A stretch of 64,000 nucleotides of DNA from an uncultured Verrucomicrobiae bacterium (GCA_963713705.1 CAVQMY010000006.1:38433-102432); one strand, 5' to 3'. Counted from the first letter of the stretch, positions 28 to 20,260 are shown. Notes: generated by a model from the sequence alone, not told the origin. Numbers and translations: made by a program.

Positions 28-978
28 ATGACGCGACAAGGGCCGCCGCGTAATCTGAGCGCGTCGGTGATACAGCGGCTGTTAAACCGCGCGAAGGAGA
101 ACGGTGAAGACCCGCAGTATGTTCTAACTCGGTATGGATTGGAACGGTTGCTGTACCGCCTTAGCCGGTCGCCACACGCGAAGAACTTCACTGTAAAAGG
201 CGCAATGATGTTTTTGGTCTGGCGAGGCGTGCCATACCGTTTGACGAAGGATTTGGATCTACTGGCGGCCCAGGGTGGTAACGAACAGGAGTTGAAGGAG
301 GTTTTCCAAGGCATTTGCCGGGTTGCAGTGGAGGACGACGGCTTGGTGTTCACCGAGCGGAGTGTGCGGGTCGCACCGATCCGCGAAGAAGATGCTTATG
401 GAGGTATGCGGGTCACGTTGGAATCGCGATTGGGCAAAGCACGCATTCCATTGCAGGTGGACATCGGGTTTGGGGACGTAGTGACGCCGAAGGCGCTCAA
501 TGTTGACTTCCCTGTGTTGCTGGATTTTCCCGCCCCGCATGTTGCCGTGTATCCCCGCGAGACCGCCATCGCGGAGAAATTCGAGACAATGGTGCGTTTG
601 GGGATCGTCAATAGTCGAATGCGGGACTATTACGACATCTGGGTAATGTCGCGGGAATTTGAGTTCGATGGCGAGGTGTTACAAGCGGCAATTCGTGCGA
701 CCTTCAAGCGTCGCAAGACCGCGTTATCAACCGAGGCCCCGTTTGGTCTGACCGCCGAGTTCGCAACCGATGGCACCAAGCAGGCCCAATGGCGCGCATT
801 TAGCACAAAGAACAAATTGAAAATTGAGGAAGCAAACTTGGAGAGTTTAGTAGAAGCCGTGCGGACCTTCGTCATGCCACCAGCAACGGCGGCCCGGCAA
901 ACAGATACGTTCGCCGAAACTTGGTCAAAAGGCGGGCCGTGGCAAAAGAAGTCCGACAGAGAAGCAAAGTCGAACTGA
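28..978 (+). CDS. AbiEii/AbiGii-family nucleotidyltransferase toxin (DUF1814; type IV toxin-antitoxin)
   Basis: 316-aa ORF. Its layout and N-terminal block (VIQRLLNRAKENGEDPQYVLTRYGLERLLYRLS ... FTVKGAMMF ... TKDLDLL) match what I recognise as AbiEii/DUF1814. The frame stays open to base 1, so the true start and the AbiEi partner may lie left of the window. Confidence 0.7.
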   Translation: MTRQGPPRNLSASVIQRLLNRAKENGEDPQYVLTRYGLERLLYRLSRSPHAKNFTVKGAMMFLVWRGVPYRLTKDLDLLAAQGGNEQELKEVFQGICRVAVEDDGLVFTERSVRVAPIREEDAYGGMRVTLESRLGKARIPLQVDIGFGDVVTPKALNVDFPVLLDFPAPHVAVYPRETAIAEKFETMVRLGIVNSRMRDYYDIWVMSREFEFDGEVLQAAIRATFKRRKTALSTEAPFGLTAEFATDGTKQAQWRAFSTKNKLKIEEANLESLVEAVRTFVMPPATAARQTDTFAETWSKGGPWQKKSDREAKSN

Positions 979-10109: not shown

Positions 10110-10232
10110 GACAATGGGCCGGAGTTCATCGTGCAAGCCGTCTCATCATGGCTGCGTTCTCGCCGCCCCTGTTCTACTAGCGCGCGTCGATCGGGGGCGG
10201 AGGAGCGGGTTCGACGAGGATGGGTCGTATCC

Positions 10233-10250
10233 ATGGGGTGAATACCCCAT
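10233..10250. promoter_or_regulatory. palindrome ATGGGGTG-AA-TACCCCAT (copy 3 of 3, one mismatch)
   Basis: Read directly. About 70 bp upstream of the DUF3300 ATG at 10318. Confidence 0.35.
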
Positions 10251-10317
10251 ACCGCGCCCTCAGCCGGCCGGGTATTCTTTTACCACAACGTCTAAAAAAA
10301 TATTTACCCGGAGATTC

Positions 10318-11498
10318 ATGAATATGAACATTTGCGGACGTGGCGCAGGGTTCGCAAGGGCTCGAATGGATGAGCGGAGATTGTTTTGCCTGTTGTCATT
10401 GGCTCTGCTGTTTGCTGCTTGGCCTCAGAACCTGTGGGCCGATCAAGTGGCCCAAGCCCCGGCGCAGGCCACGCAGGCGCCACCACACGCGCAACAGACT
10501 CCCGAGCAGTTGCAGCGGGTGGTAGCCCCGATTGCGCTGTATCCGGATTCGCTGGTGGCGCAGATCCTGGCGGCATCCACGTTCCCCGAGCAAGTCGTCG
10601 AGGCTGATCGATGGGTACAAGCCAATCCTGGTTTGAAGGGCGATGCGTTGGGCCAAGCTGTGGATAAACAGCCTTGGGACCCAAGCGTCAAGGCGCTCGC
10701 GGCGTTCCCATCCGTCCTTGGGAATATGGACAAGAACCTCTCCTGGATGTCGTCTCTAGGCGACGCCTACTACAATCAACAACAGGACGTGATGGATGCC
10801 ATTCAGGTCATGCGCCAAAAGGCGGAACAAGCCGGCAACCTGAAGAGCACGCCGCAGCAAGTGGTGACCACGCAAGGCTCATCGATCAGCGTTGAGCCTG
10901 CCAGCCCGGATGTCGTTTACGTTCCGGCCTACGACCCATGGATGGTTTACGGATCCTCCATCGACCCGTGGCCTTATTGGTACCAGTATCCCGGAATTTG
11001 GTTTGGCGGCCCGTACCTCTCGTTCGGTGTCGGCTTCGGAATCGGTTGGGGGGAGGTTTTGGGTGGGGCTGGGGGAATTGGGGATTCGATTGGCATAACC
11101 ATTACGCAACTTATGCCCACAACAGGTACTACTCCCGGAGCAATACGTTTTACAACCGAAACAATTACTATCGAGGAGGAGGTGAGCGTGGCGTTGCTTC
11201 CATCGTGCGTGGCGGAGGATCTCGCGCCGGCGGTGCTGTTTACAACCGCCCGGGCGGAACCACCCAGCCCTTCCACGGAGATACCCGGGCTGCTCGAGGA
11301 TACGCTGAACCCCGCGGTCAGAGCGGCGTCCGCTCGAGTGCCTTCAGCGGCTACGACCATGGCGGACAGGAAAGGAGCTTTTCGTCACGCGGAGGCGCCA
11401 GCTTGGGTGGAGGCGGAGGGTCCCATGAGGGCGGTGGCGGAGGGTTTCACGGCGGGGGAGGCGGAGGGTCTCACGGAGGCGGAGGCGGGCATCGGTAA
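10318..11498 (+). pseudogene. DUF3300 domain protein, frameshifted as sequenced
   Basis: The N-part (frame of ORF 10114) has the DUF3300 core LQRVVAPIALYPDSLVAQILAASTFPEQVVEADRWV ... WDPSVKALAAFPSVL. The typical Gly/Trp-rich tail (GGGFGWGWGNWGFDWHNHY ... GGGGGSHGGGGGHR) continues in the frame of ORF 10938 and ends at 11498. The switch falls at a G6 run (11048-11053). Confidence 0.7.
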
Positions 11499-11556
11499 TC
11501 GACAGTTTCGTTATGTTTCTGTTAGATCATGGAATTTAGAAATGGAGAGAAGTCAT

Positions 11557-12543
11557 ATGCGGCGAACCAAGTTGACCTTCGACAAATTTCATTGCGCCAG
11601 TCTTTCTATGGTAGCAGCGGTTGCCATCCTTTTGACGGGGTGCTGTTCCACCCGTCCCAGTCCCATGGCGCAGCAACCGGGCCAGAAAACGTTTTCATCT
11701 GCGGATGAGGCGGTCAACGCACTCGTCACGGCTGCGCAGAGTAACGACGAGAAGGCGATGCTCGACATCCTCGGACCAGACGGAAGGCAAATCGTCTCAT
11801 CGGGAGACGAAACCGAGGACGCTCAGAGCCGCGCTGATTTCGTGCAGCGATATCAGGAAATGCACCGTTTAGTGGAAGAACCGGATGGGACCACCACTTT
11901 ATATATCGGGGCGAAGAATTGGCCCACGCCCATACCGCTCGTGAACGAGGGTAACTCCTGGTATTTCGACACCGAGGCGGGCAAGAGGGAAATTTTGTAC
12001 AGGCGAATTGGCCGGAATGAAATATCGACTATCCGCGTTTGCCGGGAACTCGTGGCGGCGGAAAAGGAATACTACCCCATACAGCACAATGAGTACGCCC
12101 AGACAATCTTCAGTGATGAAGGGCAGCACAATGGCCTGTATTGGAAAGCTGCCGATGGCGAACCCCAGAGCCCCATCGGGCCGCTGGTGGCATCGGCCTT
12201 TGAGGGCTATGCCAAGAGCGGAGACGGCGCTCCGACTCCTTACCGCGGTTACTATTACCAGATCTTAACGCGTCAGGGGGAAAATGGCCCAGGCGGCGCG
12301 AAAAGTTACATCGTAAACGGCAAAATGACCGAGGGGTTCGCGTTCGTGGCCTATCCGGCGGAATACAAGTCGTCCGGCGTGATGACCTTCATCGTTAACG
12401 AGGATGGAGTGGTGTACCAGAAGGATCTCGGCAAGAAGACCGATGTTCTCGCCAAAGCCATGAAGGAATACAACCCCGATTCCAGTTGGCAAAAGGTTGA
12501 AGAGCAGCAGGCGGAGACTGCTGGCGAGCAGAAAACCAAGTAA
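11557..12543 (+). CDS. DUF2950 family protein (usual partner of DUF3300)
   Basis: Lipoprotein-like start (AILLTGCCS), then FSSADEAVNALVTAAQSNDEKAMLDILGPDG ... LYIGAKNWPTPIPLV ... NGLYW ... GFAFVAYPAEYKSSGVMTFIVNEDGVVYQKDLG. An alternative ATG lies at 11542. Confidence 0.75.
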   Translation: MRRTKLTFDKFHCASLSMVAAVAILLTGCCSTRPSPMAQQPGQKTFSSADEAVNALVTAAQSNDEKAMLDILGPDGRQIVSSGDETEDAQSRADFVQRYQEMHRLVEEPDGTTTLYIGAKNWPTPIPLVNEGNSWYFDTEAGKREILYRRIGRNEISTIRVCRELVAAEKEYYPIQHNEYAQTIFSDEGQHNGLYWKAADGEPQSPIGPLVASAFEGYAKSGDGAPTPYRGYYYQILTRQGENGPGGAKSYIVNGKMTEGFAFVAYPAEYKSSGVMTFIVNEDGVVYQKDLGKKTDVLAKAMKEYNPDSSWQKVEEQQAETAGEQKTK

Positions 12544-12737
12544 AAGGCATTCTGTCGCTGGCGCAAGGGGCGCGGTGCATGGGGCCTACATGATTTCGGG
12601 CAGTCCGTTCCAGATAACGTCAGTCTGTTCAGCGAGAGTACGTAGGGTATATGGTTCTTCAATCGGGCTTGGCTGACCATATGCGGCGATGCGGAAGCGC
12701 AAATGAACTGTAGCCAAGCCATGGCGGAGGTAAACGT

Positions 12738-12842
12738 ATGGAAACAAATACAAAGAAACAACCATCCCGAGCAACCTATCTTGCGATCCTCGTGGTATTT
12801 GCCGTGCTGATTTTATGGGCGTTCTTGAAATTGGCAAGGTAG
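12738..12842 (+). CDS. possible 34-aa single-TM peptide (METNTKKQPSRATYLAILVVFAVLILWAFLKLAR)
   Basis: My own translation; the ORF is below the track's size cut-off. GGAGG lies 8 nt upstream of the ATG. It has a basic N-terminus followed by one hydrophobic helix. It overlaps an antisense 118-aa ORF that has no Shine-Dalgarno sequence. Confidence 0.25.
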   Translation: METNTKKQPSRATYLAILVVFAVLILWAFLKLAR

Positions 12843-12968
12843 TCCTAACGAGCCGGTGCGACAAGACATCAATCGCCGCAGCTAGTGTGGTGTCACTGAA
12901 ATGCCTTTCCAATGTCCATCTGGTCAAAATGAAGCGATTCATTGTAACGAAGCGTTAGGGACAGCACA

Positions 12969-14436
12969 CTAGCAGCCCGTTAAAAAAGTCCGAGAAAGTC
13001 TCTTTGATTATTGAACCGTGAGGGCGAGTCCGCTACACGGAGACATGGCACTCGGCAAACGCAAGATTCAGCAATCGGAGTTGTTCATCCCGTCCAATCA
13101 ACTCGTGCAAGGACCCGGCCATCCGTTCTACGGCAAGCTCAATGAAGTTCTGGGTGAGGCGGATTTCGACCCGTTCGTCGAGAAGCTCTGCGCTCCTTAT
13201 TATAAAGACGGTGGCCGCCCCAGCATCCCGCCGGGCGTTTACTTTCGCATGGTGTTGATCGGTTACTTCGAGGGTTTGGACAGTCAACGCGGCATTGCGT
13301 GGCGTTGTGCGGACAGCCTGGCGTTGCGGGCCTTTCTGGGAGTGGCTCCCACCGCGACGACGCCGGTACACGCGTCGATGACCATGATCCGCCAGCGGCT
13401 GGACGAGAAGGTCTTCGACAACGTGTTTCGCTTCGTGCTGGGGCTGCTGGAACAGAAAGGTCTGTTGCGCGGTAAGACGCTGGCCATTGATGCCACGACG
13501 TTGGAAGCCAATGCGGCGATGAAGAGCATCGTGCGCAAGGACACGGCGGAGGACTGGAAGCAGTACTTGCGTCGGCTGGCGCAGGCCGAGGGGATCGAGG
13601 AACCGACCGAAGAAGACCTGCGTCGGCTGGATCGTGGACGTAAGGACAAGAAAGTTTCCAATGACCAGTGGCAAAGCCGCACCGACCCGGACAGTCGGAT
13701 TGCCAAGATGAAGGACGGGCGCACCCACCTGGCGTACAAAGCCGAGCATGCGGTGGACTTGGAGAGCGAGGCGATTGTGGCGCCGCTGGTGACGCACGCC
13801 GATCGCGCCGATGCCGACAGCGCGCCGCTGACGTTGACGCTGGCGCAAGCCAACTTGGTGCTGGCCAGCCCGCAGGCGGACCGCGCCCCTTCGGTGCGGG
13901 AGGCGGTGATGGACAAGGGCTATCACGATAATGGATTGCTCAGCGAGTGCGCGCAGCGAGGGGTACGGACCTACATTCCCGAACGCCGTCAAAAGAGTCG
14001 GTGCTGGACCAACAAGCCGGTGGAACATGAAGTGGCGTTTCGGGCCAATCGACGGCGGGTGCGCAGCGCGAAAGGTCGGCGGTTGAATCGGTGGCGCAGT
14101 GAACGCGCCGAGCGCAGTTTCGCCCACGTGTGCGAGACTGGCGGAGGACGACGGAGTTGGCTGCGCGGTCTGGTCAACGTCCGCAAAGCCTACACTCTGA
14201 AGTGCGCGGCTTATAACTTGGGGCTGCTGCTGCGCAAAGTGTGGGGCCTGAGCAAACCGCGCAGCTTGGCCGATAGGCTGCGGGCGCTTTGGGCCTTGCT
14301 CCATTGGTTGTGGGAGCAACTGGGCGGCTGCTTGACTCAACCGCTTGTCCTTGGGCTGCCCTCCACGCCGAGTGGCGGCTGCGATCCGCGGTTCACGCCA
14401 CTCGCGAAATCAGTGAGTTCTTTAACGGGCTGCTAG
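12969..14436 (+). mobile_element. intact IS5/IS1182-type insertion sequence (~1.47 kb)
   Basis: Perfect 16-bp terminal inverted repeats: CTAGCAGCCCGTTAAA (12969-12984) and TTTAACGGGCTGCTAG (14421-14436). They enclose a single transposase ORF. The outermost CTAG on each side could instead be a 4-bp target duplication. Confidence 0.8.
13045..14436 (+). CDS. IS5/IS1182-family DDE transposase (DUF772 N-domain)
   Basis: GRPSIPPGVYFRMVLIGYFEGLDSQRGIAWRCADSLALRAFLG (DUF772-type block), DKGYHDN, and C-terminal ERSFAHVCETGGGRRSWLRGLVNVRKAYTLKCAAYNLGLL. The stop codon TAG lies inside the right IR. Confidence 0.85.
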   Translation: MALGKRKIQQSELFIPSNQLVQGPGHPFYGKLNEVLGEADFDPFVEKLCAPYYKDGGRPSIPPGVYFRMVLIGYFEGLDSQRGIAWRCADSLALRAFLGVAPTATTPVHASMTMIRQRLDEKVFDNVFRFVLGLLEQKGLLRGKTLAIDATTLEANAAMKSIVRKDTAEDWKQYLRRLAQAEGIEEPTEEDLRRLDRGRKDKKVSNDQWQSRTDPDSRIAKMKDGRTHLAYKAEHAVDLESEAIVAPLVTHADRADADSAPLTLTLAQANLVLASPQADRAPSVREAVMDKGYHDNGLLSECAQRGVRTYIPERRQKSRCWTNKPVEHEVAFRANRRRVRSAKGRRLNRWRSERAERSFAHVCETGGGRRSWLRGLVNVRKAYTLKCAAYNLGLLLRKVWGLSKPRSLADRLRALWALLHWLWEQLGGCLTQPLVLGLPSTPSGGCDPRFTPLAKSVSSLTGC

Positions 14437-14443
14437 CCATGCT

Positions 14444-15667
14444 CTATGCCAAATTGCTCGTAATGGTATCAATGTCCATTCCGGAAACCCCTTTAGCATC
14501 AAAGTGCACGCGAGCCGAGTCCATGTGCGCCCAGTCCGGTCTTTTGACATCAACGATGAACACGGGCTTGCCTTCGTTGGAGAGGAAATATTTCTCAATG
14601 TGTTCGTTGATACGATTGTCGCCAAACCCATACCCGATCACGATTAACGCCTTCGATCGGGTCAGGTTGGTCTCGAGGTGATGGAGAATGACCGGGTAGT
14701 ACGGCCCGCGTCCATATTTACCAATCTTGTGTGTCGTTCCGGTCAGAAAGTCGGGGTAAAAATTGAAGGGATCGTCCACGTATTGAAGGACTCCGTCCGC
14801 CTGTAGCTCTTTATACAGGTGGATATGGGACATGCCCCACTTCAGTCGTATAAGTTCAGGCACGCCGTCCGCTTGGAACCAGTACCGGTCAACGCTTCCG
14901 TGTAATTTGTAGAGGCGGAACCGTGCATCGAATTTGTTTGTGAATCGGGAGAGCCTCACCATGTAATGCTCACCATCGCGGTCAAGCTCTCCGTAGAAGG
15001 GTGATCCGACTTCCTCGAATCCATCGTCCATCTTGCACTGAATACTGTCTGAGAACGCCAGTCGCTCTAGCCACAGGTCGTGATTGAGAGAATGGAAGTG
15101 GACATAATTGCTTTGAGCCAACCTTTCGGTAAGCAGTAGGAAATTCCCGTATTTTCGGTCGTAGGCCTTGGCCAAGTGAGAGCGCTCTGGCTTCTTTGTG
15201 AGCAAGCCGGCAATCAACTGGGAGAAAGTTTGATGAAATCTGCGCAGGAGGTGCTCGTCATCGCCGATGACTGCAGGATGTCTGGCCCTAAAACCACGAA
15301 AGAATGGGATAAGTTCATCAGGGCACCGATTGCCTTCCAGAGCTTGCCGGTAGTAGTCGTAAAACGTCTCGTAGTGGAATGGGTGAGACCCACCCAGAAT
15401 AGTGGACTGATAGAACTCCAGAAACTCTTGGACGAAATGTCTCTCTTCGGTACCCATCCATTCGGCGTTGGGGTCTTGCATTCCGTTCAAGAACCAAGCA
15501 TCGCCACTGCTGTGAACACATATCTCAGACTCGTTTATCTTTGCGAGCCGTTGATTGATCTGTGAAGTAGTTGGATAGCCCGCCGGGACGGAGAATCCAG
15601 AGCCAATTAGGAATGACACGTCTCCTTCGGCTGCGCTGCGCGGAGATTCAAGTTCAGGTGTGCTCAT
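14444..15667 (-). CDS. SIR2-like (SIR2_2/ThsA-type) domain protein, predicted NAD+-consuming effector
   Basis: 407 aa with motifs FLIGSGFSVPAGYPT (GAGxS..G.P), SLNHD (the usual TNYD position), YKLHGSV (catalytic-His block) and VIGYGFGDNRIN. It lies 39 nt downstream of the kinase gene on the same strand. GC is visibly lower than in the flanks. Confidence 0.75.
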   Translation of the reverse strand: MSTPELESPRSAAEGDVSFLIGSGFSVPAGYPTTSQINQRLAKINESEICVHSSGDAWFLNGMQDPNAEWMGTEERHFVQEFLEFYQSTILGGSHPFHYETFYDYYRQALEGNRCPDELIPFFRGFRARHPAVIGDDEHLLRRFHQTFSQLIAGLLTKKPERSHLAKAYDRKYGNFLLLTERLAQSNYVHFHSLNHDLWLERLAFSDSIQCKMDDGFEEVGSPFYGELDRDGEHYMVRLSRFTNKFDARFRLYKLHGSVDRYWFQADGVPELIRLKWGMSHIHLYKELQADGVLQYVDDPFNFYPDFLTGTTHKIGKYGRGPYYPVILHHLETNLTRSKALIVIGYGFGDNRINEHIEKYFLSNEGKPVFIVDVKRPDWAHMDSARVHFDAKGVSGMDIDTITSNLA

Positions 15668-15706
15668 GACTCACAGCGGTCCGCCTCAGAGCTGTGACCT
15701 CACCCT

Positions 15707-17065
15707 TCAAGGTGCTGGCGATTCGAGCGCCTGAGACTGCAGCCATTCCATACCCTCCACAATCGCTGCTTCAAAGTCCTGTTTCAAAACTTCCACGCTT
15801 GGTCCCTCCAGTCCTTCATACCAAAGTACCTCAACCCAATTGCCAACCGGTTTTAACCCGCTGTTCTGTCTCCACCTATAGAAGCAACGAAAAACAACGC
15901 ATTGCGAACCCTTGGCGCGCACATCGTAGAACATCCCAATCGTATCAGGATAGTTCGCGAGCGACATTTCTACGTTGAAGTGCACATTTATAGACTCGGT
16001 ACCCGAAGACGGCGCTTCAAAAGTAATGCCCGTCCTGCGCAAAGAAAAGGGATCGAGCCCCGCGCTGTACTTCTGGAGCACTCCGTTAAATGCCCGCTGC
16101 ATAGCCTGTGTCGCATCCCGGTAAGCAGCTAGCTGCGTCTTCCTGCCACGCTCCATGAGGATCTTCTGAGCCTGTCGAGCAAAACTCACCGGATCGCCCT
16201 TTGGAACAGGTGTCACCGGCTTACGCACCAACTCCAACCGCGCCACAAGTTCGTCGATGCTTTGAAAACGGTTGTCTATGGTCTGCGAAAAGCCCCGACT
16301 GAAAAATGCCTCCAAGTGTGGCAACACTGGGCTCCCGCTCAATTTTTCCGCAATCGACCTGCCAGCGCGTCGGTGTGGACCCTTGCCCGCCGAATCTACA
16401 AGGTCAACTGGCGGTTCGCCAACAATGCAATAATACAGAATTCCGCAAATCCCCGTTAGCTCCGACCGAGGGTCTCTTCTGTTTCCACCTGGCACACGAC
16501 GCTCGGGAAGACTGAGAAACCGATTATCCAATCTCTCGTCAGACCCTGTCAGGTTCTCTGCTTCGTTCGAATTAAACGACAAACCGTAGTCGACAACTAC
16601 AACATCAGGCGGGGCGAGGGACCGCACAATTATGTTGTCAGGCTTCAAATCCCTCTGCAGGACATCCTCCACTAAAGCCTTTTTCGCGGTACGACAAAGT
16701 TCCTCTACAATGTCCAAGCTCGTGTCCAGAGGCAGGCCCTTCGCGCGATCCACAACAACTGCCAAGGTTTCCCCATCGATTCGCTCCATAACGAAGTACA
16801 GCGGCACGTCCAAAGGCTCGAATTTCTCAGTGTTGCCGTCAAACACTTCTGGCACTTTGCAGCCAGCGCTATGTAGCGTCCGAAGCGAGGTCACTTCCCT
16901 GTGCATCCGCCTGCGGGCTTCGGAGTCTGTTTGCTTCTTCAGAACCTTCATTACCCCCTTGCGGCCGCCGTCGATTGAAAGCACTAAAAAGGTCGTGCCC
17001 TGGCCTCCGCCCCCGAGCGGGCCCTCAATCTTCCACTTCTCTTCCCAAGGTCCTTCCATTGGCAC
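15707..17065 (-). CDS. Hanks-type Ser/Thr protein kinase with unassigned ~170-aa C-terminal domain
   Basis: G-loop GPLGGGGQGTTF, lysine in GVMKVLK, catalytic loop LQRDLKPDNIIV, VVDYGLSF (DFG position), SLPE (APE position). I do not recognise residues ~285-452. The track start is GTG 17065; an ATG at 17059 is preceded by AGGAC. Confidence 0.8.
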   Translation of the reverse strand: MPMEGPWEEKWKIEGPLGGGGQGTTFLVLSIDGGRKGVMKVLKKQTDSEARRRMHREVTSLRTLHSAGCKVPEVFDGNTEKFEPLDVPLYFVMERIDGETLAVVVDRAKGLPLDTSLDIVEELCRTAKKALVEDVLQRDLKPDNIIVRSLAPPDVVVVDYGLSFNSNEAENLTGSDERLDNRFLSLPERRVPGGNRRDPRSELTGICGILYYCIVGEPPVDLVDSAGKGPHRRAGRSIAEKLSGSPVLPHLEAFFSRGFSQTIDNRFQSIDELVARLELVRKPVTPVPKGDPVSFARQAQKILMERGRKTQLAAYRDATQAMQRAFNGVLQKYSAGLDPFSLRRTGITFEAPSSGTESINVHFNVEMSLANYPDTIGMFYDVRAKGSQCVVFRCFYRWRQNSGLKPVGNWVEVLWYEGLEGPSVEVLKQDFEAAIVEGMEWLQSQALESPAP

Positions 17066-17119
17066 GTCCTAGAGCCCCCATTCTGGCGGTGTAGAACGTC
17101 CGCGTCAAGAATGACACGG

Positions 17120-17166
17120 GGTCAGTTCCATTCATTCTGCGATTGCCGATGCACCCACCGCCTCAC
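17120..17166. repeat. 47-bp imperfect direct repeat, copy A
   Basis: GGTCAGTTCCATTCAT... matches 17388-17434 at 39 of 47 positions (hand-aligned). The first 16 nt are identical. Confidence 0.7.
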
Positions 17167-17359: not shown

Positions 17360-17387
17360 GAGAACAATTAGACGGTGAACGACCCGC

Positions 17388-17434
17388 GGTCAGTTCCATT
17401 CATCACGCAACTGCCGACGCGCCCATCGCCTCAC
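17388..17434. repeat. 47-bp imperfect direct repeat, copy B
   Basis: See copy A. It lies 60 bp upstream of the codA start. Confidence 0.7.
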
Positions 17435-17493: not shown

Positions 17494-18816
17494 ATGGACC
17501 TGATTCTTCGCAACGCTCGCATACGCGGACACGACAATACCGTCGACATCGCCATCAACAACGGCCTCATCGCCAAAATCGAGTCCTCGAGAAGCCGAGG
17601 GGTCAGGGCGGCAATCGCTCCCAAAATCACCGCGCGTCCCAGACAAGTGATCGACTGCGCCGGGAAACTCGTTTCGCCGCCCTTCACGGACATCCATGTC
17701 CACCTCGACGCCGTGCTCACGGTTGGACAACCCCGTTTCAATCAAACCGGCACACTCATCGAAGGCATCGAGATTTGGTCGGAACGCAAGAAGACGCTCA
17801 CATTCGATGATGTAAAACGCCGCGCCGCGCTCGCCGTGAAATGGGAACTCGCCCATGGCGTCACCCGCATCCGCAGCCACGTCGATGTCTGCGATCCCGA
17901 ACTCACCGCTGTGAGGGCGTTGCTGGAAGTGAAAAAGGAATTTGCCGGGCTCGTGGACATCCAACTCGTCGCGTTTCCGCAGGACGGCATCTACGCCTTC
18001 CCCAACGGCGAGCGCCTCATGGAACAGGCCATGGAACTCGGTTGTGACATCGTCGGTGGTATTCCCCACCACGAAATGACCCGCGACGACGGCGTGGCCG
18101 ACGTGAAATTCGCCTGCGACCTCGCCCAGCAATTTCAAGCAAAACTCGATCTGCACATCGACGAGACCGATGACCCGAACTCGCGGTTCACCGAAGTTCT
18201 CGCCGCCGAGACGATCAAGCGCGGCCTGAACGGACGCGTCACCGCCAGTCACACGACTTCCATGCATAGTGTGGACAATGCGTACGCATTCAAACTTATT
18301 CGCCTGATCAAACGCGCCGGCCTGCACATGGTCACCAATCCATGCGACAACTCCGTCCTCCAGGGACGTTTCGACACATACCCGAAACGCCGCGGTCACA
18401 CCCGCGTGAAAGAGCTTCTCGCCGCCGGCGTCAACGTCGGTATCGGCCATGATTCGATCATGGACCCGTGGTACCCGCTTGGTGTTGGCGATCCCGTGCA
18501 AGTCGCCTTCGTCTGGATTCACTACGGACAGATGAGCGGCGCCAGCGAAATCCCGCAGGTCTGGGACATGATTACAACGAACCCCGCACGCGCCTTCGGC
18601 GCCACCGACAAAACCTACGGCATCACCGTCGGCAATCCCGCCGATCTCGTCCTTCTCGACGCCGAATCCGAATTCGACGCCCTCCGCCGCATCGCCCCCC
18701 GCTTGATGGTCATCAATCGGGGCCAAATCATCGCCCGCACCACCCCCGGCGAAACCGTCCTCTGCGCCAAGGGTTGGAAAAAGGAAGTGATTACGTTCGA
18801 CCCGGCACACCGGTAG
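17494..18816 (+). CDS. codA: cytosine deaminase
   Basis: Collinear with E. coli CodA as I recall it: PPFTDIHVHLDAVLTVGQPRFNQTGTLIEGIEIWSERK ... RIRSHVDV ... IQLVAFPQDGI ... DLHIDETDD ... VTASHTTSMHS ... GRFDTYPKRRGHTRVKELL ... IGHDSIMDPWYPLG. Confidence 0.9.
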   Translation: MDLILRNARIRGHDNTVDIAINNGLIAKIESSRSRGVRAAIAPKITARPRQVIDCAGKLVSPPFTDIHVHLDAVLTVGQPRFNQTGTLIEGIEIWSERKKTLTFDDVKRRAALAVKWELAHGVTRIRSHVDVCDPELTAVRALLEVKKEFAGLVDIQLVAFPQDGIYAFPNGERLMEQAMELGCDIVGGIPHHEMTRDDGVADVKFACDLAQQFQAKLDLHIDETDDPNSRFTEVLAAETIKRGLNGRVTASHTTSMHSVDNAYAFKLIRLIKRAGLHMVTNPCDNSVLQGRFDTYPKRRGHTRVKELLAAGVNVGIGHDSIMDPWYPLGVGDPVQVAFVWIHYGQMSGASEIPQVWDMITTNPARAFGATDKTYGITVGNPADLVLLDAESEFDALRRIAPRLMVINRGQIIARTTPGETVLCAKGWKKEVITFDPAHR

Positions 18817-18907: not shown

Positions 18908-19916
18908 TCACCACAGTTCCGCCTGCTTCCAGAAGGCGGCGATCAGCCCGGGGCGACGGCGCATCCGGCGCAGCGCCCGGGTGGCCATGAGGCTCAGTTC
19001 CCAGCCGTGTTGGGCGCAGAAGTTCGCCAATTCGTGCTGCTTGAGGTGGCCCCAGATGTACTCGGCGGGGTTCAGTTCCGGCGCGTAGGCGGGTAAGTAT
19101 TCCAAGTGGACGCGCTGGCCCAGCGTGCCGATGAAGTCACGGACCGCCCGACTGCGGTGGATGCCGGCACCGTCCCAGACAATCAACAGTCGCCCGGACA
19201 GATGGCGCAGCAGATGCCGCAGGAACTCGATGACTTGGGGGCTCTTGATGGCGCCGTCGAAGAGCTGAAAGTAGAAGTTCCACAGGGTCAGCCCGGCCAC
19301 GACCGAGAACTTCTTCCAGTTGAAGTGGTGCTGCAGGACGGGCGTGCAGCCGCGGGGTGCCCAGGTGCGGACGCGGTGCGGCTGTTGGCTCAACCCGCTC
19401 TCGTCGATGAAAACGATCAGCCGGCCTTCGCGGAGCGCTTTTTTTAATATCCGGCCAGCGCTGGCGCTTCCAGCAGCGGATCGCCGGCTCGTTGCGTTCC
19501 AAGGCGCGACCGACGGGTCGCTGGCAACTCCAGCCCAGCTTCTGGAGCAGGCGATAAACGTGATCGGCATGAAACCGCACCCCGGTTTGCCGTTCGATGA
19601 GGTCGGCGATGCGCGGGGCCGTCCACAACGGCGTGTCGTAGCCGAGGGCCTGCGGTCCCTGACGGAGTGCCAGTTCGATCTGGTGGAGTTGGGCGGAGCC
19701 GAGTCGGGGTTTGCGACCGGCGCGTCCGGCCTTCTTCAGGCCGTCGGTCCCCTGCGCCTGCCAGACGGCGTACCAGCGCCCACTGGATTGGGCGCTGACA
19801 CCCAAGCGTCGGGCGACGGCGGCCTTGCCGAGACCACGAGCGAAAAGTTTGGCCGCACGGAAGCGGCGCTGTTGGAGTTGGTCAAAGTCGCGCTTCAATC
19901 CTTTGAGGTGTCCCAT
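18908..19916 (-). CDS. IS630-family transposase, two frames joined by a probable programmed -1 frameshift
   Basis: OrfA has an HTH part (GLGKAAVARRLGVSAQSSGRWY ... LWTAPRIADLIE). OrfB has the DDE part (LIVFIDESG ... IVWDGAGIHRS ... LEYLPAYAPELNPAEYIW). The frames overlap at an A7 run, giving ...WPDIKKKALREG... Confidence 0.85.
19439..19445 (-). other. A7 slippery run (T7 on the plus strand) at the orfA/orfB junction of the IS630 transposase
   Basis: Read directly. It sits at the point where the two transposase frames overlap. Confidence 0.6.
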
Positions 19917-19976
19917 ACTACCTTCGACACCGCAACCCCCAATAGCGTTCACTATATTATACAGGACTCAATAGAC

Positions 19977-20048
19977 AGAAGCGTGGCTCCTCAGAAGCTT
20001 GCCCGCGCCCTCTTAAACAGTATATTAAAACAAGCGGAGCTAAAATGA
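19977..20048 (+). pseudogene. hicA: hicA toxin gene remnant (last ~23 codons only)
   Basis: RSVAPQKLARALLNSILKQAELK resembles the conserved HicA C-terminus (...GTLRSILKQAGL). The stop overlaps the hicB ATG (ATGA). The 5' part is missing and the break coincides with the IS630 right end. Confidence 0.55.
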
Positions 20049-20260
20049 CGAAGTACCTTATTGTGGTGGAAAAGACGGCAACGGGCTACTCGGCTTTCTC
20101 GCCCGATCTACCCGGCTGCATTGCCACCGGCGGATCGCGTGATGAAGTCGAAAAGACCATGCGCGAGGCTGTTCAATTCCATCTCGACGGTCTGCGCGAA
20201 GAAGGTCTCGACGTCCCCGCTCCACACAGCTACTCCACGTACTGTGAACTTCCCGCCTGA
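20045..20260 (+). CDS. hicB: HicB-family antitoxin (UPF0150)
   Basis: YLIVVEKTATGYSAFSPDLPGCIATGGSRDEVEKTMREAVQFHLDGLREEGLDVPAP is the typical HicB N-domain. Confidence 0.85.
   Translation: MTKYLIVVEKTATGYSAFSPDLPGCIATGGSRDEVEKTMREAVQFHLDGLREEGLDVPAPHSYSTYCELPA

Follow-up and report, generated by a model that had tools for sequence, protein, structure and literature searches.

DSR1 and DSR2 are single-gene defences built on a SIR2 NADase, which is autoinhibited and triggered by phage proteins; DSR proteins are longer than 1000 residues and carry large C-terminal sensor domains. Stk2 of Staphylococcus epidermidis, a stand-alone Hanks-type kinase, is said to have been described by Depardieu in 2016 as aborting infection through the phosphorylation of numerous host proteins once a phage protein has been sensed, and we know of no described link between protein phosphorylation and NAD+ depletion in bacterial immunity. 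PD-T4-6 (Vassallo et al. 2022) is a single gene encoding a 436-residue Ser/Thr kinase (RRM76169.1) of Escherichia coli UMB0949, recovered by functional selection (PMC9519451 supplement). The stretch of DNA analysed here (the window; 64,000 nucleotides from an uncultured Verrucomicrobiae bacterium, GCA_963713705.1 CAVQMY010000006.1:38433-102432) contains a gene for a Hanks-type Ser/Thr kinase directly followed by a gene for a SIR2-like protein, and an earlier note on this DNA had read the two as an undescribed two-gene system. The comparisons described below favour a different explanation, which is probable although well short of certain: two self-contained defence-type genes have come to be juxtaposed in a small foreign islet and do not constitute a conserved two-component system. 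The call of open reading frames (ORFs) reproduces to the nucleotide the two co-directional minus-strand genes, 39 nt apart and encoding 452 and 407 residues, that had been described, and the pair is laid out as follows.

15707-17065, minus strand: kinase gene, 452 residues from a GTG start (ORF call)
17059, minus strand: start of the kinase in the public record (P0121), an ATG two codons later, giving 450 residues
16211-17065, minus strand: catalytic domain of the kinase, residues 1-285 (PknB profile match in PDB over residues 9-288, E 4e-32)
15710-16210, minus strand: family-specific C-terminal region of the kinase, residues 286-452
15668-15706, minus strand: 39-nt spacer that separates the two genes
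15625-15667, minus strand: recombination junction; the first ~13 SIR2 codons, including the start, are unrelated to the orthologous genes
14444-15667, minus strand: SIR2-like gene, 407 residues from an ATG start

As a conserved two-gene system the pair does not recur, an outcome that the earlier note had itself named as refuting. No PD-T4-6-type kinase occurs at any of 99 SIR2-family loci, and no window-type SIR2 at any of nine PD-T4-6-like kinase loci or of 80 broader kinase loci; in a scan of all 187 loci fetched, the two families are found together nowhere except in the window. A hidden Markov model (HMM) of the kinase family detects nothing in 88 SIR2 loci even at E<=10 (the window kinase, as positive control, scores 604 bits), the clustering of all ORFs within 3 kb of SIR2 genes yields no recurrent neighbour of any kind, and there is no kinase-SIR2 fusion among the 120 listed homologs of either family. 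On the kinase side, the six distinct loci with full-length homologs share neither a SIR2 gene nor any other neighbour gene. Homologs of the kinase are seen solitary among housekeeping genes, behind VapBC and a PDC-S05 gene, or with a HEPN neighbour; relatives also travel as cargo on two conjugative plasmids, with no SIR2 there. At L176:1737-6575 (and L177), a full-length kinase of 48% identity overlaps by 4 nt the end of the gene of a 963-residue type IIG restriction-methylase (PADLOC, 547 bits); it is followed by a gene for a DrmC-like PLD nuclease, in an apparent operon tighter than the window pair.

The SIR2 gene carries a record of a different partnership. Its closest relatives (P0002, P0003, and P0004, with 77%, 69%, and 66% protein identity) all have a co-directional gene of 334-364 residues directly upstream, at gaps of 38, 19, and 154 nt. 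For two of these partners the DNA is at hand (L001:8892-11200 and L175:144-2397); they are 50% identical to each other, and each consists of a Zn-ribbon, a hydrophobic, likely membrane-spanning middle stretch, and a weakly coiled-coil-like C-terminal half. The Zn-ribbon partners are unrelated to the kinase and match no PADLOC family. A neighbour-joining tree pairs the window SIR2 with P0002 and places P0003 outside the two; the window SIR2 is thus nested in the small Zn-ribbon-partnered clade. For this clade the partner is therefore ancestral, and the lineage of the window has lost or exchanged it; the window retains no remnant of the partner gene.

By blastn, the homology of the SIR2 gene to L001 (80%) and L175 (70%) is confined to window positions 14551-15625, and in the DNA alignment it begins at the codons for GDVSF, around SIR2 codon 14; the start codon, the 39-nt spacer, and everything further upstream are unrelated. 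On the 3' side, the homology fades at the stop codon, beside the end of an insertion sequence (IS). Since the homology starts only at about codon 14, recombination at the very 5' end of the SIR2 gene evidently brought it behind the sequences that now precede it. The DNA comparison thus shows the kinase-SIR2 pairing to be recent; recency by itself is silent on whether the pairing functions. The gene is of full length with an intact reading frame, and its comparison with P0002 gives a ratio of non-synonymous to synonymous substitution rates (dN/dS) of 0.13 at a dS of 1.1. As a candidate for a real two-gene system, the pair of Zn-ribbon membrane protein and SIR2 is better than the pair in the window.

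By its profile matches the kinase is a new member of the named single-gene family PD-T4-6 (PADLOC; PMC9519451 supplement), which tells against an undescribed two-gene system; a match to a system that already has a name was likewise among the refuting outcomes listed in the earlier note. The reading as a Hanks-type kinase is upheld by its Pfam match (Pkinase, PF00069, E 1.9e-13), and the motifs GPLGGGGQGTTF, GVMKVLK, LQRDLKPDNIIV, DYG, and SLPE are all present in the translation. The best PADLOC model is PD-T4-6 PDLC04049 (E 2.1e-102, 341 bits, residues 5-335); the next five models of this system reach 221-275 bits, the remaining ones at most 100 bits, and the PknB model of NCBIfam 66 bits. PD-T4-6 subfamily models thus score the kinase about five times above PknB-type models, a gap that matters because PADLOC is known to assign housekeeping PknB/StkP kinases to PD-T4-6 in error. 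The search for homologs returned 373 relatives, and many of the best 120, for which details were listed, are proteins of 450-470 residues that cover 97-99% of the query. The expected catalytic residues are present (the G-loop GGQG, K40, E57, D139/K141/N144, D159-Y-G, and SLPE188), and K40, E57, D139, K141, N144, D159, and E188 are invariant in the family alignment. The window kinase reads QRD, not HRD (16651-16659, residues 136-138), where H137 is kept in 31 of 32 aligned homologs; the catalytic Asp is retained. Its AlphaFold2 (AF2) model has a predicted local distance difference test (pLDDT) score of 90.1, and PknB is the top PDB match both by fold and by sequence. Phage collections hold no match to the kinase or to the SIR2 protein; in plasmid collections, the kinase matches only two cyanobacterial plasmid kinases, which share its first ~345 residues.

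The C-terminal ~170 residues of the kinase, which the earlier note could not place, indeed have no relative in Pfam, PADLOC, or PDB (the PDB profile search gave coiled-coil noise only), but they are conserved in the kinase subfamily, since full-length homologs cover 97-99% of the query; on this comparison they are a regular part of the subfamily and no novelty of the window locus. An exhaustive phmmer search with this region against 1.84 billion representatives gave 37 matches, most of them at about residues 290-455 of kinases of ~450 residues; 18 are shorter proteins (106-405 residues), probably fragments, and one is a repeat-type match of 897 residues. In more distant relatives of the kinase (L089 and the two kinases from cyanobacterial plasmids), the match to the family HMM is limited to positions ~2-345, so that the family has a conserved core of ~340 residues and a variable C-terminal domain. 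A swappable domain on such a core is the pattern expected of a sensor, and the C-terminal region may accordingly be regarded as a putative sensor or oligomerisation domain. In the AF2 model it begins with three helices (292-334), which lead into a five-stranded β-sheet (340-417) and, at the C-terminus, a long helix (424-448). In a Foldseek search with the full kinase model, chains of the CaMKII holoenzyme ranked 2nd, 3rd, 11th, and 20th, with 475-499 aligned columns, long alignments that other multidomain kinases produce as well; together with the topology of three helices and five strands, these ranks raise the idea that the predicted domain may have an NTF2-like or hub-like fold.

The SIR2-like protein likewise contains the motifs quoted for it (FLIGSGFSVPAGYPT, SLNHD, YKLHGSV, and VIGYGFGDNRIN). 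In Pfam it matches SIR2_2 alone (PF13289, E 1.6e-5; 25.5 bits, just above the cut-off of 24.5) and not the family of classical sirtuins; its best PADLOC match, to Aga_SIR2 (E 3.8e-15), is partial, covering residues 118-263. A homolog search gave 385 homologs; among the best 120 listed, 107 have 386-423 residues, and SIR2_2 is the sole Pfam domain recorded for any. The Rossmann motif GSGFS (residues 22-26), N195 (in SLNHD), and H256 (in KLHGS) are retained, leaving the N/H pair of the SIR2_2-type domain intact; G22/G24, N195, and H256 are invariant in the family, and all 40 of its 40 invariant columns are kept in the window protein. The SIR2 fold, for which the earlier note had named profile and structure searches as the check, is confirmed by them on the predicted model (pLDDT 90.5, residues 1-10 disordered). 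The best Foldseek matches are the SIR2 subunits of SIR2-HerA (8sub, 8uae, 8wld; E 1e-10, TM ~0.5, probability 1.00); weaker ones are sirtuins (E ~1e-5, probability 1.00), KomBC (E 6e-5), and BcThsA (E 1e-4). The best sequence-profile match in PDB is 8w9l (E 3e-7). For both proteins, the profile and structure matches place the family assignment well outside chance. Given this predicted fold and these residues, the protein is a putative NAD+ hydrolase.

The distribution of the SIR2 family is very patchy: a motif-seeded scan of one genome per species, for 185,579 species, confirmed 146 relatives. The 80 loci returned with flanks of up to 6 kb come mostly from metagenome-assembled genomes of Bacteroidota, Ignavibacteriota, and Zixibacteria, and at P0025, P0028, P0041, and P0018 the SIR2 gene is solitary in unrelated neighbourhoods. 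The 106 immediate neighbours of SIR2 genes in 53 genomes include SIR2_2 proteins, CAP12-type TIR effectors, PtuA/AriA-like ATPases, reverse transcriptase (RT)-proteases, methylases, and helicases, and six family members sit on predicted viral contigs; plasmid collections contain no SIR2 match. The neighbours and the viral contigs are suggestive, but not rigorous, indications of a defence role for the family. Solitary SIR2 proteins of ~400 residues thus make up a populous family (385 homologs) without a name in any defence catalogue. Among the 106 ORFs directly beside SIR2 genes (L009-L088), three encode SIR2_2 proteins, as would be seen with tandem SIR2 paralogues.

The kinase and SIR2 genes are probably co-transcribed in the window, since a promoter and terminator scan predicts neither element in the 39-nt spacer. 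RNA folding of the spacer gives a stability not above that of shuffled sequence (z 0.79), and a hairpin acting as terminator or regulator was rejected. The GC content is 0.51 for the SIR2 gene and 0.54 for the kinase gene against 0.59 for the window, in agreement with the lower-GC patch of the earlier note, and the GC content at third codon positions (GC3) is 0.60 and 0.59, respectively; on the side of IS1182, codA, and the genes downstream, six neighbours (codA, the IS transposases, and three more genes downstream) have values of 0.75-0.83, and the other three genes measured (Usp, DUF3300/DUF2950, and hicB) have 0.59-0.65, like the pair. The low GC3 relative to the codA and IS-side genes, and the IS1182-family element adjoining the pair, point to a foreign origin of both genes, which would have been horizontally acquired. 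The features surrounding the pair are the following.

17080-17108, minus strand: candidate sigma-70-like promoter, TTGACG-17-CAGAAT, just upstream of the kinase start (consensus scan, 9 of 12 matches)
12969-14436, plus strand: IS1182-family insertion sequence with transposase domains DUF772/DDE_Tnp_1 (NCBIfam transpos_IS1182, E 6e-61)
17494-18816, divergent from the kinase: codA, housekeeping cytosine deaminase with native GC3 (NF005748, 507 bits against a cut-off of 438)
18908-19952, minus strand: IS630-family element, in two overlapping ORFs (helix-turn-helix (HTH) part, 271 residues; DDE part, 220 residues)
20045-20260, plus strand: HicB-like antitoxin ORF, 71 residues, adjoining IS630 and matching the first half of the Pfam profile only; no search was aimed at HicA
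28-975, plus strand: AbiEii nucleotidyltransferase toxin gene, 316 residues, intact, at the window's left edge (full-profile PADLOC match, 377 bits)

The promoter candidate is weak evidence, because the number of such sites in the region (two) does not exceed that in shuffled sequences (mean 1.7). The IS1182-family element has terminal inverted repeats of 22 nt (12969-12990 and 14415-14436, 91% complementary) and ends 7 nt past the SIR2 stop codon, bounding the islet on that side; the placement of the pair between two IS elements therefore holds for this element, which abuts it, but not for IS630, from which the kinase is separated by codA. The splitting of IS630 into two overlapping ORFs suggests a frameshift, programmed or disabling. 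AbiEii, listed earlier as a remnant, is an intact gene ~13 kb from the pair and the sole other defence match among the 62 window ORFs scanned; its AbiEi partner, if any, would fall outside the window. PADLOC and Pfam find no HerA, TIR, Argonaute, or STAND gene among these ORFs, as had been stated for the first three, and Thoeris, SIR2-HerA, DSR, and pAgo had been correctly excluded. A window scan for tRNA genes and Rfam families found none; there is thus no tRNA-linked integration signature.

Three further observations concern the flanks. The divergent intergenic region between the kinase and codA contains a direct repeat of 58 nt (17109-17166 and 17377-17434; copies 268 nt apart and 81% identical), whose core, GGTCAGTTCCATTCAT, occurs in the window only there. 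The repeat may have arisen by duplication of the sequence upstream of codA where the islet ends on the right, or it may be an operator present twice. On the left of the IS1182-family element, at 12544-12968, lies a patch of low GC content (0.51) with a minus-strand ORF of 118 residues (12586-12942), for which the NCBIfam library gave no match; the element may have split the islet, and this ORF may once have followed the SIR2 gene. Next to it, a single plus-strand ORF of 809 residues (10114-12543) holds both DUF3300 (residues 130-301) and DUF2950 (residues 524-795), and may be either a fusion or an over-long ORF call.

For two self-contained genes in one islet, the following sequence of events can be proposed. 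Infection would activate the kinase through its variable C-terminal domain, by analogy to Stk2-type kinases, and the activated kinase would phosphorylate host and/or phage proteins and so abort the infection, as its family membership and what is known of Stk2 suggest. The SIR2 protein would be an autoinhibited NADase that depletes NAD+ when triggered, with its own insertion domains as sensor; this mode, which fold and catalytic residues suggest, would follow the DSR and SIR2-HerA paradigms. Recombination with its junction in the first SIR2 codons would have placed the SIR2 cassette behind the kinase, and would in the same event have displaced the Zn-ribbon membrane-protein gene that precedes SIR2 in the closest relatives. 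A defence role is plausible for each gene.

Several points weigh against this explanation. The defence function of both window genes, the NADase activity, and the independent action are what we infer from the comparisons. The sample on the kinase side is small, with six distinct full-length loci and three partial relatives; the assignment to PD-T4-6 was made through PADLOC profiles; and some housekeeping kinases are known to be called PD-T4-6 by PADLOC in error (PMC11514479, PMC12322248). In a metagenome scan with the kinase alignment, seeded on the generic HRDLKPEN and DFG-region motifs, the matches listed were unrelated kinases of 23-33% identity, uninformative for the subfamily. The two genes lie 39 nt apart on one strand, with no predicted terminator or internal promoter and with near-identical GC3, which fits a single acquired operon. 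Finally, an upstream partner is present in three of three members of the nearest SIR2 clade, so that this SIR2 lineage may depend on one, and in the window the kinase stands in precisely the partner's place.

The last two points lead directly to the rival that survives best, although it is an unlikely one: a lineage-specific but functional two-gene module that arose by partner swap, in which the kinase has taken the place of the Zn-ribbon membrane protein. With its C-terminal domain as sensor of infection, the kinase would turn on the SIR2 NADase, or lift its inhibition, by phosphorylation or binding; the SIR2 protein of this clade would be an effector in need of an upstream sensor or regulator. 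The kinase resembles the ancestral partner in orientation and spacing (39 nt, as compared to 38 nt in L001 and 19 nt in L175), no terminator is predicted between the genes, all three closest SIR2 relatives have a co-directional upstream partner, GC3 is equal in both genes, and the SIR2 protein keeps its 40 invariant residues under a dN/dS of 0.13; the shuffling of sensors and effectors is moreover a general feature of defence systems. This dN/dS, however, mixes the time before and after the swap, and the module would be known from one instance, with both genes together in no other locus of 99 SIR2-family and 89 kinase loci and no fusion among the listed homologs of either family. Beyond the three closest relatives, no SIR2 member examined has a recurrent partner, so that the SIR2 fold is evidently self-sufficient; homologs of the kinase are self-sufficient single genes, and the window kinase departs from them with QRD in place of the HRD of 31 out of 32 homologs. 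In a still less likely, more general form, the SIR2 protein would be a portable NADase effector cassette with interchangeable upstream sensors, elsewhere the Zn-ribbon membrane protein and here a PD-T4-6-type kinase. If this form were true, the kinase would be the first Hanks kinase to gate an NAD+-depleting effector in bacterial immunity, and any true module of the two genes would link protein phosphorylation to NAD+ depletion there.

The same junction, read less favourably for the SIR2 gene, could mean that IS-associated recombination cut it off from its Zn-ribbon partner, start codon, and promoter, leaving an orphaned cassette, silent or non-functional, behind a working kinase. The junction does fall within the first codons, the start codon is new and non-homologous, the IS1182-family element ends 7 nt past the stop, upstream of the gene there is neither a Shine-Dalgarno sequence nor a promoter that convinces, and the partner is absent from the window. 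Orphaning is nevertheless improbable, as the reading frame is intact and of full length, every invariant residue is kept, the comparison with the nearest relative reveals no excess of non-synonymous changes (dN/dS 0.13), and the position of the gene allows read-through from the kinase promoter. Equally improbable is a non-immune role, with a signalling Hanks kinase beside an NAD-dependent deacylase or ADP-ribosyltransferase that would regulate cellular targets. Both families do have several homologs among housekeeping genes, the PD-T4-6 label given by PADLOC to housekeeping kinases has been judged mistaken, and sirtuins are among the fold matches (E ~1e-5), but the distribution is very patchy, GC3 foreign, and mobile elements are nearby, some relatives have defence-type neighbours, antiphage SIR2-HerA subunits are far better fold matches than sirtuins, Pfam assigns SIR2_2 and not the classical sirtuin family, and the kinase scores about five times higher on PD-T4-6 subfamily than on PknB-type models.

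With two self-contained genes as the favoured explanation, the locus compares as follows to the known systems. The Kongming system (KomA deaminase and KomBC) was considered on account of the adjoining amidohydrolase and set aside, as this is a bona fide CodA, divergent and with native GC3, and the fold match to KomBC is weak; membership in Avs5 was ruled out, with no STAND gene among the 62 window ORFs. The SIR2 protein of the short-pAgo system SPARSA provides the best PADLOC match of the window SIR2 (Aga_SIR2), but the match is partial (residues 118-263), and the window has neither an APAZ domain nor an Argonaute gene. In Thoeris, ThsA also carries a SIR2 domain as its NADase effector, and the fold of BcThsA is matched weakly (E 1e-4), but no SLOG/STALD domain is detected (PADLOC ThsA, E 0.026) and no TIR protein (ThsB) is among the window ORFs. 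DSR1 and DSR2 provide the functional model proposed for a solitary SIR2, but the window protein, at 407 residues, lacks their kind of sensor domain and has no PADLOC DSR match. SIR2-HerA (Gao_19/PD-T7-2; 8sub, 8uae, 8wld, 8w9l) is the best structural and sequence-profile match, with a SIR2 subunit of ~380-400 residues, a SIR2_2-type NAD pocket, and the N/H catalytic pair; the window SIR2 differs in its insertion domains, with TM ~0.5 and 15-17% identity, and membership was rejected, as no HerA is present in the 62 window ORFs and the listed neighbour families of its homologs contain neither HerA nor a recurrent ATPase. For the kinase, Stk2 may serve as a mechanistic template, with the kinase fold as the shared feature. 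Closest is PD-T4-6 (profiles PDLC04039-04063). The window kinase differs from it in its last ~115 residues (336-452), which lie outside the best model, in a C-terminal α/β domain specific to a small subfamily (37 representatives), and in QRD for HRD; it resembles it as a single-polypeptide Hanks-type Ser/Thr kinase of ~440-450 residues, in the kinase domain and helical extension (residues 5-335) that the best model covers, and in having no obligatory partner, its homologs typically being stand-alone genes in mobile or defence contexts.

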